From Thermoproteota archaeon (lineage in GTDB: Archaea > Thermoproteota > Methanomethylicia > Methanomethylicales > Methanomethylicaceae), in the NCBI GenBank assembly GCA_029887795.1, contig JARXPE010000001.1, positions 129,386 to 193,385 on the forward strand: a stretch of 64,000 nt of DNA. The letters are read 5' to 3'. Both the position numbers and the translations under genes were made by a program. Below are positions 2,860-15,515 of the stretch, in pieces. Within the stretch, counting starts at the first letter, position 1. Every line of letters starts with the position of its first letter. A model generated the notes under the pieces. That model ran no database searches and was not told where the DNA came from. It saw only the letters and a program-made list of their open reading frames with translations.

Positions 2860-4762
2860 CTAGAGTGTGTTGGGGCTTTTCCTTCGCCTTCTTTTCCTGA
2901 GGGGGCAACTTAGCAACGACGCTATGGGCGGGGATCTCTTTCAACTTGGGCACCTCCTGCCTCGGGGGCTCCCTCTTTTCTGGAGGCTTCAATTTTGTCT
3001 TCACCGTTTCCATAAGTTTGTGGAAGATTTCTTCTTGGCTGGTGCCTGTCAGGAGCGACAAATCTCTCGCGATCTCACGTGCGTAGATTTGGAAGATGCT
3101 CTGTCGGTGGCGTTCGTGCTCCTGCCTCTGCCTATGAGTCACGTAGGAATGTATCATCCTGCCCAGCGCTTGGAGCGCGAGCCTCAACTGCTCGTGGATC
3201 TCGTCATGGTAGGCGACTGCAAATTTTCCGGGGACTGTGTATGGTACTTTAGTTGAGATCAGTGAAATCACCAAAACCATCGGGGCGAGGGGGAGTGTTC
3301 CCTCCTCCTGCGGGAGCTTGTAGTTTCTCCAGTTTATCTCCTTCACAGTCTTGTACAAGAGGCAATCCTTGGAGTCGTAGATCAAAGGGCACTTGTTTCC
3401 AAGTCGTATAACCTTCGCCTTAAAGACGCCAGGCCTTACAGTCTCGCAGTCACTTGCAACGGAGGCGCCGCCGTAGGCGACTGCGACCTCCACTTGAAAT
3501 GGAATTCCCCTGTACGACCACGGCTCCCTTGAAGTCGCCTCGATAAACTCAGCGTCGGGGTAAAGCCTCCTGAGGGATTGCCTGAGAGCCTCCTCCCCTA
3601 TGGGGCTAAGAACGTCTAGGGGAGGTCGCATGATGTCGACCTCCTTGGCCGCCTTGAATAGAGCCTCCACGTTGATCTCCTTGGGTGGAACGTTTGGAGA
3701 GATCTTTGCTGCGGAAAGTAGCTGAAGGGCTTTTAGGTCCGAGATCCTGACGAAGTGTCTAACCAAAAACTGCTTCGCATCCCTACAGCACCTGTCGTTA
3801 GAGATCATCTCAAGGAGCGCCCCCGGCTCTATGGAGAGTATGTGGGGCTTTATTTCCTTGGGTTGGGGCGGCAGGGTTTTTGTTGCCCTCGGGTAGTTAA
3901 TGACCTTCTCCTCACCGTTTACAGTGGGCTTGAGTATGAACTTCAGCTCCGCGTGGGGGTTGGCAAGAGAGAGCTCCTTGATGAAGGACTCCACTTTTTT
4001 TGTAAATTCCCCCGCGACCATCAACTCAACTTTGGTCCCATGAATTCTGTCGAAGGGGACCTCTTCTGCAGAAATAACGATGGGCTTATTTTGCTCGGTG
4101 TCTATCTTGAGCACCACTCGGTAAGCCTTCTCGTCGGTCTCGGTTTTAGTGGTTATAATGGCGGGCTCCAGCGAGGTCAGCTGGGCATATATTATCGCAG
4201 CATGAACGCCGAGCCCCTGCTGACCCCTTGATTGCTTGAAGGAAAAGAACTTAGACCCATAAAGGACCTTGCCAAAGGCCTTTGCCACTTTGCTCCGCAC
4301 CACACCACAGCCGTTGTCCTCAACACAGATTTTGAAGATTGGGAACTTTCTTATTCCGCCGTCCTTTATCCTATTTGTGATGACCTCATATTCCTTCTCT
4401 GTGGCGGCAAGGGTTACCGTGATTTCAGGAAGGACACCCATAGCCTCGGCCGCGTCGAGTGAGTTGTCGACTAGTTCTTTGATAGTTTGGACCAGGGCAT
4501 GTTCTGGGTCGCCGAAGCCAAGCTGACCCAAATTCTGCCTGTAATATTGGGCGGGATTTACGGCTCTCATCTTCCTTGCTTCTGCTTCAGCGACTGTGGG
4601 AGGTTCTAATGTTGACTTATCTTTGCGCCATTCTTTCCTGGGGCGCCTAGTTTTTCTCAAAAGGGTCCTTCGGACTGTTTTCTCGGCACCTTCCTTGTTT
4701 GCCCCTATCTTGTCTGCACCGTCCTCTCCTTTCATCATCAGATAGACCCCACATGACACCAA
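2843..4762 (-). CDS. top6B: DNA topoisomerase VI subunit B (start may be ATG ~4738)
   Basis: GHKL motifs KELVDNSLDA, EDNGCG, YGSKF, SRGQQGLG, HGTKV; overlaps top6A. Confidence 0.95.
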   Translation of the reverse strand: MVSCGVYLMMKGEDGADKIGANKEGAEKTVRRTLLRKTRRPRKEWRKDKSTLEPPTVAEAEARKMRAVNPAQYYRQNLGQLGFGDPEHALVQTIKELVDNSLDAAEAMGVLPEITVTLAATEKEYEVITNRIKDGGIRKFPIFKICVEDNGCGVVRSKVAKAFGKVLYGSKFFSFKQSRGQQGLGVHAAIIYAQLTSLEPAIITTKTETDEKAYRVVLKIDTEQNKPIVISAEEVPFDRIHGTKVELMVAGEFTKKVESFIKELSLANPHAELKFILKPTVNGEEKVINYPRATKTLPPQPKEIKPHILSIEPGALLEMISNDRCCRDAKQFLVRHFVRISDLKALQLLSAAKISPNVPPKEINVEALFKAAKEVDIMRPPLDVLSPIGEEALRQSLRRLYPDAEFIEATSREPWSYRGIPFQVEVAVAYGGASVASDCETVRPGVFKAKVIRLGNKCPLIYDSKDCLLYKTVKEINWRNYKLPQEEGTLPLAPMVLVISLISTKVPYTVPGKFAVAYHDEIHEQLRLALQALGRMIHSYVTHRQRQEHERHRQSIFQIYAREIARDLSLLTGTSQEEIFHKLMETVKTKLKPPEKREPPRQEVPKLKEIPAHSVVAKLPPQEKKAKEKPQHTLDAFIR

Positions 4763-4907
4763 AGCAAATTAAGTGCGCCCGTCATCCTGTATGTATAAAA
4801 AGTATTTATCCCTTCTCGGCAACATGAGGGCACACCCCATATAAAGAATAATTACATTCCAAGAAGAGTTTTGTTAGCTTGGAAAAGGAAAAAATCAAGG
4901 TTTGAGG

Positions 4908-6467
4908 TCAAAAGCCAGGAACTTCCTCTAGGAGCATGCCCTCGATCATGAATGGGGGGTTTCTGGAGGCTACGCCTAGGGCCTCTTTGAGTTTTGACTC
5001 TCTCTCCGCATAGATTTCCACGACCGGGTCGCCTTTCTTAACCGCGTAACCCATTTTCGCGTAGAGTTTAACGCCTGATCCCTTGTCGAGAGGTGCCCCC
5101 GCTGCCTTAGCAATCGCATTGATTGCGGAGTTATTTATGATGCTCACGTAGCCATCTGTGGGAGCCGCGAGTATGTACCTCTTCTCGCCTAATGGAATCT
5201 CGTCTGGCTTGATGTTGGGGTTACCTCCTTGGTTCTCGATGATTTCGCGGAACTTCTGGTAGGCTTTACCACTCCTTAGGATCTCCTTGGCCATGTCTTG
5301 ACCCCCTCCCCTAGGAGCCAAACCAGTCATCTCAAAGAGTGTGCCAGCAAGTGCAGTTGATTTCTCGATCAAGCTATTCGGACCCCTTCCCATGAGGGTC
5401 TCGAGCGCCTCTTTTGCCTCCAGTGCAGGACCCACGGTGTGACCGACCGGCTGACCTCCGTATGTCAAGCCACACCTAACCCTGATGCCAAGGCGGCTCC
5501 CCAACTCAATGAACTCGTTGGCAAGCTTACGTGCCTCCTCAAAACTTTCCACTTTCGCACCTCTTCCGGTTGGGATGTCCAAGACCAATGTCGAGACGCC
5601 CACGGCCAGCTTCTTCGCCATTATAGATGCCAACATCTGAGGGCGAGGGTCTATGGAGAGCGGATGTTCCACTCTTATGAAGAGGTCATCGGCTGGTGCA
5701 AGGTTCAGGCTGCCACCCCATGCTATATACCCTCCAGTTTTCTGGAGAAGTCTCCTGAGCTCGCTAACTGAAAACTCCACAGGAGCGAGTACTTCCATGG
5801 TGTCAGCAGTACCTGACGGACTGGTTATCGCCCTGCTGCTCGTCTTGGGTATCTTAAGTCCTGCGGCTGCCACTATGGGAACTATGAGGAGCGTCACTTT
5901 GTTTCCCGGGACGCCACCTATAGAATGTTTGTCGACCACAGGTTCTCCAAAATCTATTGTATTTCCAGTCTCAACCATAGCACGGGTTAGGCTCTCTATC
6001 TCATCCATGTTCATGCCGACGTACTCCTCAGCCATGAGAAAAGCGGCGACCTCGAGCTGGCTCAGAGAGTGTGTCACAGTGTCCTTCACTATCTGGGTTA
6101 TCTCTCCCTTGGTGAGTGTTTGACCTCTCATCTTTTTACGGATGTACTCAACCGATGGCGGGGTAGGAGCAGGGGATATCTCCACCTCTTCCCCTTCTGA
6201 GACAGGAAAATCCTGCAGCAGGTCTCTATAGATTCCGACCTCTCCTGGGCAGACTAGCCCGCTGGATACTTCAATGCGGCAAACTATCCTGTCGGATATA
6301 TCAATCCTTGCAAGGACATTCGCACCGCCCTTGCTAAGGCGGACTCGATCATGAATTCGGAGCATCATGCCCTTTGCATCCTGTTCGTTCAATACCACGC
6401 CCTTTTCTCCGGTGGTGATGTCTATGATTTTTGCCTTGAGAGTCGGCATTGCTAGATCACTACTCAT
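4908..6467 (-). CDS. deoA: AMP (NMP) phosphorylase
   Basis: DKHSIGGVPGN, PKTSSRAITSPSGTAD, N-terminal extra domain, 519 aa. Confidence 0.95.
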   Translation of the reverse strand: MSSDLAMPTLKAKIIDITTGEKGVVLNEQDAKGMMLRIHDRVRLSKGGANVLARIDISDRIVCRIEVSSGLVCPGEVGIYRDLLQDFPVSEGEEVEISPAPTPPSVEYIRKKMRGQTLTKGEITQIVKDTVTHSLSQLEVAAFLMAEEYVGMNMDEIESLTRAMVETGNTIDFGEPVVDKHSIGGVPGNKVTLLIVPIVAAAGLKIPKTSSRAITSPSGTADTMEVLAPVEFSVSELRRLLQKTGGYIAWGGSLNLAPADDLFIRVEHPLSIDPRPQMLASIMAKKLAVGVSTLVLDIPTGRGAKVESFEEARKLANEFIELGSRLGIRVRCGLTYGGQPVGHTVGPALEAKEALETLMGRGPNSLIEKSTALAGTLFEMTGLAPRGGGQDMAKEILRSGKAYQKFREIIENQGGNPNIKPDEIPLGEKRYILAAPTDGYVSIINNSAINAIAKAAGAPLDKGSGVKLYAKMGYAVKKGDPVVEIYAERESKLKEALGVASRNPPFMIEGMLLEEVPGF

Positions 6468-13231: not shown

Positions 13232-13933
13232 GTGTTGTACCACATTAGGTGTAAGAAGGGAGAGGTAGCAGAAAGGGTAATAGTGTGCGGGGATCCAGGA
13301 AGGACTAAGAGGGTAGCGGAGCTTTTGAAGGAGCCAAAGCTCGTAAACGAGAATAGGGGGCTCCTGACGTTCACAGGCAAGTACAAGGATGTAGAGGTGA
13401 CGGTCTCAACAACGGGAATGGGCACACCCTCTGCAGCCATTGTAATGGAAGAGCTGGCGGCTTTGGGTGCGAAGTATGTAATAAGGGTCGGCACGACAGG
13501 CGGGATCAGAAGAGATGTGGAGCTTGGCGACATAATAGTGCCAACAAGGGCCGAGCCCTTGGACGGGGCGTCTAGAGCTTATATCAAGAAGGGAGGCAAG
13601 ACCGTTGCGGACGAAGAGATGGTCAGAATTTTGGTCAAGAATCTTGAAGGAAGCAGATACCACGTCGGACCAATTTGCACCAGCGACACTTTTTATCTAG
13701 AAGAGGAGGAGGACGCGAGTTATTGGGCATCAAGAGGGGTACTGAGCTTCGAAATGGAGTGCTCAGTTATATTTGCAATAGGGTCGTTGAGGGGATACAG
13801 GGCAGCCGCCGTTCTGACCGTCACGGGAAAGATCTTCGGAAAGGGGGATAGGGTGCTTGACACTACGACAACCACAACGGGTGTCGAGAGAAGCATAAGG
13901 GCGGCTTTGGAGACATTGAATTTAATAAAATGA
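13232..13933 (+). CDS. Nucleoside phosphorylase (PNP/UDP family)
   Basis: CGDPGR, ENRG, GMGTPS, IRVGTTGG, SDTFY, EMECS. Confidence 0.9.
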   Translation: MLYHIRCKKGEVAERVIVCGDPGRTKRVAELLKEPKLVNENRGLLTFTGKYKDVEVTVSTTGMGTPSAAIVMEELAALGAKYVIRVGTTGGIRRDVELGDIIVPTRAEPLDGASRAYIKKGGKTVADEEMVRILVKNLEGSRYHVGPICTSDTFYLEEEEDASYWASRGVLSFEMECSVIFAIGSLRGYRAAAVLTVTGKIFGKGDRVLDTTTTTTGVERSIRAALETLNLIK

Positions 13934-14084
13934 TTCACCATGAAAAATTGATTTATGCGTTTAAAAAACAAAATTATCGGGTTCACTACAAATGATATAA
14001 GAAAAGAACCAGCGTTTTCTTTGACTGATAGAACAAGATTGAAAAATGGCTTTCAATACTTTGATGTAGAAGGGTACAAGATAC

Positions 14085-14092
14085 ATTAAAAG
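14085..14092 (+). promoter_or_regulatory. Putative TATA box for the structured RNA element
   Basis: ATTAAAAG at about -31 to -24 relative to 14116, the first base of the terminal stem. Confidence 0.4.
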
Positions 14093-14115
14093 AAGGAGGA
14101 GCACATTATATTAAC

Positions 14116-14372
14116 GCCGCAGTTGAGGTCGAAGCGAGCCTGTAACGGCACCGAAGCAAAGCAGTTCGGTCCGTGACCCTTCGGGGAAACGGATCGGACG
14201 AGGTTGCGTAGGTGCAACGGACAGGATGCAGGGCGAGGACGATCCAGGGCGTCAGGACAAAATCGGACGCCACGACCGCGGGAAGCCTTGCATGGGAAGG
14301 TCGGAAGGAAAGGCTCTGCCATGGGGGGCCTGGAATTCTGGCTTTCTCCTCAAGGTCGGCCTCAACTGCGGT
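14116..14372 (+). ncRNA. Unassigned structured RNA (~257 nt)
   Basis: 17-bp terminal helix (14116-14132 / 14356-14372, two G-U pairs), several internal hairpins including cUUCGg, GC-rich island in AT-rich intergenic DNA, T-tracts downstream. Confidence 0.7.
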
Positions 14373-14478
14373 CTCTATTTTGGGAAATCAATTTTTTCAG
14401 TATTACTATATGCGTTGGATGTTTTAAAAGGGTTAAAGATTAAGATTAATAGATTCGGTCTAAAGGAGAGTTAAACGC

Positions 14479-14883
14479 TTGAAGTCTCATAAGTACTATC
14501 TTAAACTTTCGGAAGAAATAAAGTCGTTAGTGGATGCCATAAACTTTGGGACCTCCTTAGTCATAGTAGAGGGGCAGAATGATGAGATCGCGTTGAGGGA
14601 ATTCGGTTTAAAAACGCCAGTATTGAGATTCAGAGGCCTCGGGTATTCAGAGACATTCTTCATTGAAGAAGTCTCCAAAGAATATAGGGGAAGGAGTGTA
14701 GCAGTAATTTTGGACTTTGATGAGGAGGGTATAAAGATGGCGGACCGCATAAGCAGAGAGCTTGAAGAGAGAGGCGTAAAGGTACAACATTATTTTAGAA
14801 GGGCCTTCAAGGAAGTCCTCTTAAGAGAGGGCGTAAGGCATGTGGAGGAGATAAAGGCGATAAGAGAAAAGGCACTCTTTTAG
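14479..14883 (+). CDS. Small stand-alone Toprim-domain protein (RNase M5/primase-like)
   Basis: VIVEGQND and ILDFDEEG toprim motifs, 134 aa. Confidence 0.85.
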   Translation: MKSHKYYLKLSEEIKSLVDAINFGTSLVIVEGQNDEIALREFGLKTPVLRFRGLGYSETFFIEEVSKEYRGRSVAVILDFDEEGIKMADRISRELEERGVKVQHYFRRAFKEVLLREGVRHVEEIKAIREKALF

Positions 14884-14921
14884 GACGAGTGAGCCCATTT
14901 ATATTTGCAGCTTTAATAGGA

Positions 14922-15515
14922 ATGAGAATGGAGAGGTCAACAGAGTTGGTCCAGGTAGGATTTGAGCCAAAGATTGTGTTCATTTGCCCCCTTTGTGGTA
15001 AGGAGGTTGAGGTAATATATGAGAGGGGGAGGGGGGGATGGACCTCGGAGCATGCCAACTGTCTCAATTTCACAGTCCTTAGAACCCTGCCCATTAGTCA
15101 GCCAGCAACTTATGGACCATTAGTTTTCATAGCCTTGGAGTCGGATTTTTCTGTTATGGAGGCTGTTGAAAAACTTAGGGAGGTTTTGGGCGAGGAGGTA
15201 GACACGTTCAAGAGGCAGAAGTTGGAGGCGGGAATTAAAAGACTCGAGTCGAGGCGGGGTTTCGCAGAGAAGAACATTCAGCGCATTCTGGAGGCCATAA
15301 GGTCCGGGGCTTTTGGGCTGAAGATACTTTCGGGCAAGGATACTTGGGCAGGTGTTTGGAGGGCAGGGGAGAAGTTTTTTGGGATAGCACTCTCCGGAAA
15401 TAGGCTGCTGAAGAGGGAGGAAGCTATTCTGGCGACCACTAGCCAAGAGGAATTGCAGAGGTTTGTAGAGTACTGGCTGCATTACTGGGAAGGTGGAAGA
15501 GCTGTATCGGAATAG
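14922..15515 (+). CDS. Hypothetical protein with N-terminal CPLCG zinc-ribbon-like motif
   Basis: CPLC...H..C; TATA-like TTTATATT at ~14898; codon style matches neighbours. Confidence 0.6.
   Translation: MRMERSTELVQVGFEPKIVFICPLCGKEVEVIYERGRGGWTSEHANCLNFTVLRTLPISQPATYGPLVFIALESDFSVMEAVEKLREVLGEEVDTFKRQKLEAGIKRLESRRGFAEKNIQRILEAIRSGAFGLKILSGKDTWAGVWRAGEKFFGIALSGNRLLKREEAILATTSQEELQRFVEYWLHYWEGGRAVSE

Follow-up and report, generated by a model that had tools for sequence, protein, structure and literature searches.

We analysed a window of 64,000 nucleotides from the genome of a Thermoproteota archaeon of the family Methanomethylicaceae (the source genome, G000; assembly of 1.25 Mb, 92% complete), in which a 545-nt gap between the genes of a nucleoside phosphorylase and a toprim-domain protein harbours what is almost certainly a genuine non-coding RNA gene. 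The features of the locus are the following:

13232..13933, + strand: nucleoside phosphorylase (uridine/purine type), the upstream neighbour, conserved and separate from the RNA
14033..14066, no strand assigned: upstream inverted repeat, imperfect in the source copy (TCAA near -88, TTG[A/C] near -54)
14085..14092, + strand: TATA-like element, from a test of TATA-like 4-mers on 72 copies
14116..14372, + strand: RNA gene of 257 nt, from the fold, the homologues and an RNA depth confined to bins 14083-14446
14373..14398, + strand: T-rich tracts, a likely terminator, from a T-tract test on 72 copies
14479..14883, + strand: small toprim-domain protein (PRK04017-like), the downstream neighbour, which marks the ancestral locus

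The preliminary description of this stretch had proposed a unit of 257 nt whose ends pair over 17 bp, and both the sequence and the fold bear this out at 14116-14372; the two non-Watson-Crick pairs of the closing helix are indeed G-U on the + strand. The ends 14116 and 14372 are placed from this closing helix, and the homologues range in length from 254 to 332 nt. The + strand folds to about -140 kcal/mol (-139.9 to -140.5; z of -8.08), which none of 200 shuffles equalled, as against only -98.6 kcal/mol for the minus strand. No open reading frame is common to the copies, values of 0 to 40 codons being among the commonest for the longest closed ATG frame, which speaks against a small protein-coding gene.

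For the analysis of covariation, which had been put forward as a check, we used an alignment (A3) to which 70 selected loci, 41 of them genomic and 29 taken from 51 metagenome loci, contributed 71 distinct copies, with apparent duplicates and cut copies left out. Changes on both sides were found in 52 of the 73 pairs counted (6 of which are self-pairs of palindromes), compared with 31.0 +/- 2.6 in shuffles, none of 500 being as high, and 88.7% of the cells were paired, compared with 34-44% when the alignment was slid. As A3 was fitted to the model R1, its counts lean towards P1-P5 and not towards P6, which is wrong in R1: this model splits the 3' domain into two short helices, whereas the folds of the individual copies give one long hairpin. 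A plain MAFFT alignment showed changes on both sides in 22 of 39 pairs. The elements of the fold, all on the + strand, are the following:

14116..14132, + strand: P1, 5' strand, pairing with 14356-14372
14136..14138, + strand: P1c, 5' strand, pairing with 14349-14351; 3 of 3 pairs change on both sides
14139..14225, + strand: arm P2, with a conserved base CCUGY/RCAGG; 7 of 12 base pairs change on both sides
14226..14293, + strand: arm P3 (14226-14234 with 14285-14293); 7 of 8 pairs change on both sides
14236-14245, + strand: hairpin P4; 2 of 3 pairs change on both sides
14248-14271, + strand: hairpin P5; 7 of 8 pairs change on both sides
14276..14281, + strand: palindrome 1, CCGCGG, on the single-stranded stretch that joins P5 to P3
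14294..14348, + strand: arm P6, a single long hairpin with an internal loop, from per-copy folds; 13 of 16 pairs change on both sides
14319..14324, + strand: palindrome 2, CCAUGG, within the loop that caps P6, a predicted symmetric kiss site
14356..14372, + strand: P1, 3' strand, pairing with 14116-14132

In P1, 10 of the 17 pairs changed on both sides and 94.7% of the cells were paired (A3). The earlier argument that the G-U pairs favour selection at the RNA level also holds, as pairs 2-17 of P1 contain 66 G-U/U-G against 17 A-C/C-A combinations over the 71 copies. The four-way junction that P1c closes also takes in P2, P3 and P6 and, in the fold of the source copy, has zero unpaired bases. 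Beyond its base, P2 continues as a long arm that is variable in length and sequence and capped by a small loop (UUCG in the source copy), while P3 leads into a three-way junction with the hairpins P4 and P5. The covariation supports a predicted four-way junction of long arms. Four of the internal helices proposed earlier are found in the minimum-energy fold, namely 14164-14174/14189-14199 with its UUCG cap, 14312-14317/14325-14330, 14248-14253/14266-14271 (fully kept in 52 of 71 copies) and CCUGU/ACAGG (64 of 71). The other four, namely the helix 14203-14218 (fully kept in 8 of 71), 14273-14277/14299-14303 (8 of 71), UCCAGG/CCUGGA (7 of 71) and the GAGCC/GGCUC pseudoknot (8 of 71), are complementary in the source copy and compete with conserved helices, and they had to be given up; P3, the long P6, P1c and the palindromic loops had been overlooked. 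Inspection by eye found no conserved example of a kink-turn.

The RNA is present in 30 of the 32 Methanomethylicaceae genomes. A search at the DNA level picked up homologues throughout the family. An initial alignment held 39 copies, and the model R1 was made from 33 of them, six being set aside for their long inserts. R1 detected 43 copies in 29 of the 32 Methanomethylicaceae genomes and gave no match in the 30 genomes taken from the rest of the class, and the corrected core model R2 (133 positions, from 34 of the 71 copies under 90% alike) gave the same range. The 30th genome is G018, whose copy sits at the usual locus and has diverged; as for the two misses, the contig ends at the toprim gene in G009, and in G020 the toprim gene is also missing from the genome. 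In 30 of 30 genomes, the toprim gene immediately follows the main copy. The source genome has a single copy, and 14 extra copies are dispersed among unrelated genes in nine genomes, with up to five copies in G027. Beyond the family, R1 gave no match in a sample of 151 genomes of the phylum, and R2 gave a single 24-bit match in a sample of 150, which lies inside a reading frame and was taken as chance; these range searches score limited candidates per genome, so that the result outside the family reads as not found rather than absent, and the full-length search ran only via R1, which covers very distant full-length relatives less well. A scan of 185,579 species genomes with a core pattern yielded 30 matches, 27 of them true copies and all of these archaeal by title; the three bacterial matches were not true copies. 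The same pattern gave 51 matches in metagenomes, 45 of them true, and none in viral contigs, and plasmid and phage records held no match. Copies are recorded under Methanosuratincola, Methanomethylicus and Methanomethylicaceae, the named records including CP130488.1 and CP186953.1, whose strains are presumably in culture.

The toprim gene shows no sign of a functional link to the RNA. It also occurs in 14 of the 30 class genomes outside the family, all of them without the RNA, and no structured homologue was found beside the gene at these 14 loci (one stretch being ended by a contig end). A link to methanogenesis was rejected because the RNA and mcrA are not co-extensive, mcrA being found in 31 of the 32 family genomes and also in five class genomes that have no RNA. 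A 208-aa frame with a CPLCG motif lies downstream of the toprim gene (14889-15515, + strand) and has no Pfam or NCBIfam match.

The transcription signals noted in the preliminary description recur across the homologues. A TATA-like 4-mer was found at -33..-22 in 71 of 72 copies, compared with 13 of 72 in a control window, with A at -27 in 97% of the copies, and a T-tract follows the RNA in 54 of 72 copies, compared with 3 of 72 when the same test was made for A (the other strand). Just upstream of the TATA-like element lies the inverted repeat, with halves about 30 bp apart, which the dispersed copies retain and which is hard to make out in the AT-rich genera g8/g9; TCAA was counted in 48, TTG[A/C] in 65 and both in 45 of the 72 copies. 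We infer that it is a candidate binding site for a transcription factor. A matrix scan of the genome with this repeat gave no usable regulon, its own site ranking 18th of 66, and a scan for sigma-70 promoters and hairpin terminators, which is unsuited to an archaeon, gave nothing on the + strand. Weak matches to C/D guide RNA models upstream, at 13985-14072 (+ strand; 21.5 bits with a cut-off of 48; RNA depth of 0-4.5), were taken as chance.

Metatranscriptome reads, which had been suggested as a further check, gave a strong signal. In the runs X3 and X4, the contig depth, summed over relatives, was 1e5-5e5 at the peak bins of the RNA compared with 0-23 on the flanking genes, and one X4 record had a depth of 6,912 against 3.8-7.3 for the flanking records. 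X20 gave a single contig (14150-14360), which lies within the RNA, and all 12 of 12 reads of X21 fell inside it. The first mates of X21 are mostly on the - strand, as expected for a + strand RNA in most stranded libraries, although six pairs give weak support. These depths come from 4 of the 22 listed runs (X3, X4, X20 and X21, with X3 and X4 from one study) and from RNA runs only, and the contigs show neither ends nor strand. Taken with the signals on both sides of the gene, the RNA is likely to be transcribed on its own.

With Rfam 15, the window gave no match inside the RNA, either at the gathering score or at E<=10, and five diverse homologous loci gave only weak, unrelated matches far below the cut-off at E<=1. 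The archaeal SRP RNA model (RF01857) did not match; the helix-8 motif, said earlier to be missing, occurs in 2 of 71 copies with one mismatch. A true SRP RNA lies elsewhere in the source genome (G000:C38:33158-33472, 147.9 bits), and nhmmer found no match between it and the RNA. Guide RNAs are marked by the boxes C and D (C/D type) or by an ACA box at the 3' end (H/ACA type); box C was found in 2 of 71 copies and a terminal ACA in none of 71. The absence of an Rfam match, the covariation and the strong RNA signal uphold the earlier proposal of a new class of non-coding RNA with its own promoter and terminator, and we consider it very probable that the class is new.

Palindrome 2, at the tip of P6, reads CCAUGG in 66 and CCUAGG in 5 of the 71 copies with no single change (the column count in A3 is 66, 4 and 1, one row being shifted). 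The swap has three origins (G028, G021 and a clade of three dispersed copies), so that the evidence consists of 5 sequences and 3 events, and a tree of flanking genes from 20 loci separates G021 and G028 with strong support. The chance of three coincident swaps comes to ~3.5e-6, a crude figure that takes rates as equal, ignores gene conversion and is uncorrected for the many positions inspected. Of 23 other unpaired dinucleotides, 22 have more single than double changes. Entropy is 0-0.42 bits in the hexamer compared with 1.75-1.98 at its flanks, and the loop varies in length from 6 to 11 nt. The sole intramolecular partner of the hexamer, CAUGG at 14291-14295, follows the swap in 0 of 5 copies. 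When held unpaired, the hexamer lies in a hairpin loop in 71 of 71 folds, and at least 4 of its 6 bases are open in 60 of 71 unconstrained folds. The predicted self-duplexes have energies of -7.8 (CCAUGG) and -8.0 kcal/mol (CCUAGG), which equal that computed for the weaker HIV-1 hexamer (-7.9 kcal/mol). As 14321 and 14322 covary although adjacent bases of a strand cannot pair with each other, the swaps point to pairing between the hexamers of two molecules. For OLE and GOLLD, the accessible text of Kretsch et al. 2025 (PMC12286853) uses covariation of adjacent bases in support of intermolecular kisses seen by cryo-EM, and the P6 tip shows the same feature, a loop palindrome with covarying neighbouring bases. 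We hold that the RNA probably self-pairs through P6.

The other palindromes are less regular. Palindrome 1 is perfect in 47 of 71 copies (CCGCGG, CCCGGG or CUGCAG) and imperfect in 24 (CCGAGG, CUGAAG, CCAAAGG and others), where self-pairing is weak (-3.2 to +0.6 kcal/mol); its second pair has changed from C-G to U-A three times, and GC to CG once. It may offer another site of self-pairing, or it may form a small loop with one or two closing pairs. A third palindrome, GGCGCC, occurs in the P5 loop of four copies from the genera g8/g9, twice as AA-GGCGCC-A. In G018, the P6 tip reads UUAUAA, which is still palindromic with a self-duplex of only -0.6 kcal/mol, and the other palindromes are lost; predicted strong self-pairing is hence not kept in every copy.

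Conceivably, the RNA works as a monomer within a ribonucleoprotein, as raiA may, its palindromes serving as mini-hairpins, tertiary contacts or protein-binding loops. The variants of palindrome 1 between an invariant C and G (CGCG, CGAG, CAAG, UGAA, UGCA and CCGG) would suit a small loop with a single closing pair, a reading based on the tetraloop families; moreover, G018 keeps the fold without strong palindromes, and most of the P6 hexamer is paired in 11 of 71 unconstrained folds. Nevertheless, a monomer fails to explain why the centre of palindrome 2 is only AU or UA, with three swaps and no single change, and its constant hexamer contrasts with the freely varying flanks and length of the loop, for which we regard this explanation as possible but doubtful. 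The two versions of the loop also contain AUG and UAG, and given the meanings of these codons and the T-box mechanism, P6 might be thought to read tRNA in the fashion of a T-box (AUG for tRNA-Met, UAG for an amber-reading tRNA). This deserves hardly any credence: any such palindrome holds a codon together with its anticodon, three switches of target among close relatives are unlikely, the invariant CC and GG would go unexplained, and the RNA has a terminator-like tract of its own and no fixed downstream gene in the 14 dispersed copies. A MITE or small mobile element with P1 as its terminal inverted repeats would account for the 17-bp complementary ends, for the extra copies at unrelated loci (14 in nine genomes, as many as five in G027) and for the IS200/IS605 element adjoining one dispersed copy (TnpA and TnpB, L032:3056-4641, starting 285 nt downstream). 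It is, however, at odds with a single copy in the source genome and the same locus across 30 genomes, with the promoter and upstream repeat being kept in dispersed copies outside the ends, and with the one-strand G-U bias and internal covariation. Target-site duplications, which the preliminary description had named as the mark of a MITE, were not found, direct repeats at the ends being of at most 2 nt in 65 of 73 copies, and we set the chance of a mobile element very low.

The preliminary description had also offered a strongly diverged RNase P-like RNA, and the proposal can be extended to a duplicate or accessory RNase P RNA, perhaps compensating for a reduced protein set of the family, in the manner of RNase MRP, the RNase P-related RNA of eukaryotes. 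Archaeal RNase P RNA, which has a P4 pseudoknot between CR-I and CR-V, shares with the RNA its length, a long terminal helix, a stand-alone gene and one look-alike string. This string, GAGGAAAGUCC-like with at most 2 mismatches, occurs in 33 of 71 copies, mostly overlapping palindrome 1, but its GUC is paired in P3 with covariation, a P4-like pseudoknot partner (5 bp) exists in only 14 of 71 copies and a CR-V-like string in 4 of 71. There was no match to RF00373 or RF02357, and a profile of RNase P RNA built from the family scored 0 of 71 copies at E<=10. Canonical RNase P RNA (over 200 bits) lies elsewhere in the genome in 16 of 31 members of the family, the majority of them carriers of the RNA as well, and the two coexist in most genera. 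In the source genus g1, none of the five genomes (G000-G004) yielded a canonical copy; of the canonical RNAs sought elsewhere in the genome, SRP RNA was thus found in the source genome and RNase P RNA only in relatives. The stretch around RNase P RNA in the nearest relative, G007, is missing from the assembly of the source genome, and a gap is therefore possible instead of a loss. The accessible text of PMC6565675 describes Pop5-Rpp30 as dimerising archaeal RNase P. Pfam detected Pop5 in 0 of 32 family genomes, as against 28 of 30 class genomes from outside the family, and in the source genome the operon expected to hold Rpp30 lacks it; nevertheless, a diverged Pop5 is present in the usual operon there, for which the loss of Pop5 as a partner signal was withdrawn. 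The shared range amounts to one evolutionary branch and has no statistical weight. On this balance, with canonical copies elsewhere, no profile match and few P4-like partners, an RNase P-like RNA is improbable.

The RNase P proteins look reduced in Methanomethylicaceae, as judged from their genes. Rpp21 and Rpp29 are present, the weak family-wide Pfam match to Rpp30 is a PHP-type phosphatase in the source genome, and no protein-only RNase P was found there. In the source genome, the loci concerned are L224:4306-4653 and 4746-5186 (G000:C4:10305-11185).

The reading that we prefer, with a probability of roughly 0.6, is that Methanomethylicaceae produce an abundant, conserved non-coding RNA with a predicted four-armed junction, which likely pairs with itself via P6 into an assembly that likely acts as a scaffold. 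A rigid four-armed RNA would join a second copy by loop-loop pairing of P6 (6 bp, about -8 kcal/mol), to which palindrome 1 and, in one clade, palindrome 3 may add further contacts that do not cross-react and so raise the valency. The dimer or larger body would then act as a protein scaffold or binding platform rather than as a catalyst, guide or cis-regulator, since hardly any of the RNA is left single-stranded, it contains none of the known catalytic motifs and it is not tied to particular neighbours. Given self-pairing, we put such a role at about even odds, the only hint towards it being an Alba gene beside 3 of the 14 dispersed copies. A sponge of the CsrB type was rejected, GGA being only mildly enriched (13.1 against 9.9, mean z of 1.5), and no long complement to another locus of the source genome was found (its rRNA genes are possibly unassembled). 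A bolder version, in which CCAUGG, CCGCGG and GGCGCC, which do not cross-pair, would build a protein-free cage, filament or condensate in these methanogens as an RNA nanostar, is in our estimate unlikely; if true, no self-assembling RNA body would have been described from Archaea before it, as far as the literature searched goes.

Few abundant stand-alone structured RNAs are known in Archaea, namely rRNA, tRNA, RNase P RNA, SRP RNA and guide RNAs. Among the closest parallels, OLE, GOLLD and ROOL are presented in the accessible text of PMC12286853 as large, structured, homo-oligomeric RNAs of unknown function with covarying symmetric kissing loops; they are bacterial and of 550-830 nt (PMC12990946, accessible text), whereas the archaeal RNA is of 254-332 nt and its assembly is only predicted, and their Rfam models do not match it. 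ARRPOF RNA (255 nt) is of the same size class and forms a homodimer with kissing loops, and is a Fusobacterium plasmid element with four pseudoknots according to the accessible parts of PMC12990946 and PMC5737381; the archaeal RNA is chromosomal and family-wide, with no conserved pseudoknot and no Rfam or plasmid match. The raiA motif RNA ranks among the most abundant RNAs of its cell and is independently transcribed, with a long closing helix and a function that is unknown; in the accessible text of PMC10861870, it belongs to Bacillota and Actinomycetota and has two pseudoknots, and the archaeal RNA has no raiA match at E<=10. With respect to the tip of P6, the DIS-type kissing loop of HIV-1 similarly places a purine-flanked palindromic hexamer in a hairpin loop, and synthetic RNA nanostars similarly fold a single strand into four arms, but are designed with a palindrome on every arm (PMC11567899, accessible text for both), whereas the archaeal RNA has one palindromic tip in all but one copy and a second in one clade. 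If the prediction holds, the RNA would work like OLE, GOLLD, ROOL and ARRPOF while being a member of none; the class is probably new and the predicted principle, a palindromic kissing loop, is already known.

In the literature searched, mostly open full text, there is no description of such an RNA in the Methanomethylicaceae lineage. One study clusters all GTDB intergenic regions (10.64898/2026.10.21.760802); its main text, as far as accessible, makes no mention of these archaea, and one of its unannotated clusters may hold the RNA locus. The natural self-assembling RNAs discussed in the accessible text of PMC12990946 come from bacteria or viruses, and what they do in the cell is described as open. 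The present RNA adds a family-wide class, very highly expressed and without a relative in the catalogues, from methanogens that do not belong to the classic lineages. It is small, chromosomal and mostly single-copy, and its natural variants CCAUGG, CCUAGG and UUAUAA are ready controls, so that the cellular relevance of RNA self-assembly becomes directly testable.

Several minor observations concern single copies and their surroundings. In the G018 copy (L171:1397-1676), the junction loops have become long, near-perfect hairpins and UUAUAA stands as the palindrome of P6, a form that could be either decay or a simplified version. The two copies of G013 (L163:1501-1754 and L036:2477-2734) are identical in the 3' core and different in P1 and P2, a pattern that suggests gene conversion between them. 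Pieces of the RNA at four contig ends of G006 (L043, L044, L046 and L047) point to further near-identical copies that may have broken the assembly. The Alba genes lie within about 0.8 kb of the dispersed copies concerned (L037, L039 and L041, which are related) in three arrangements; the genomes of these copies and the source genome have three Alba genes each, those of the source genome being on contigs other than that of the RNA. Among the 26 tRNA calls made by ARAGORN on the source genome, one is a tRNA-SeC (tca).
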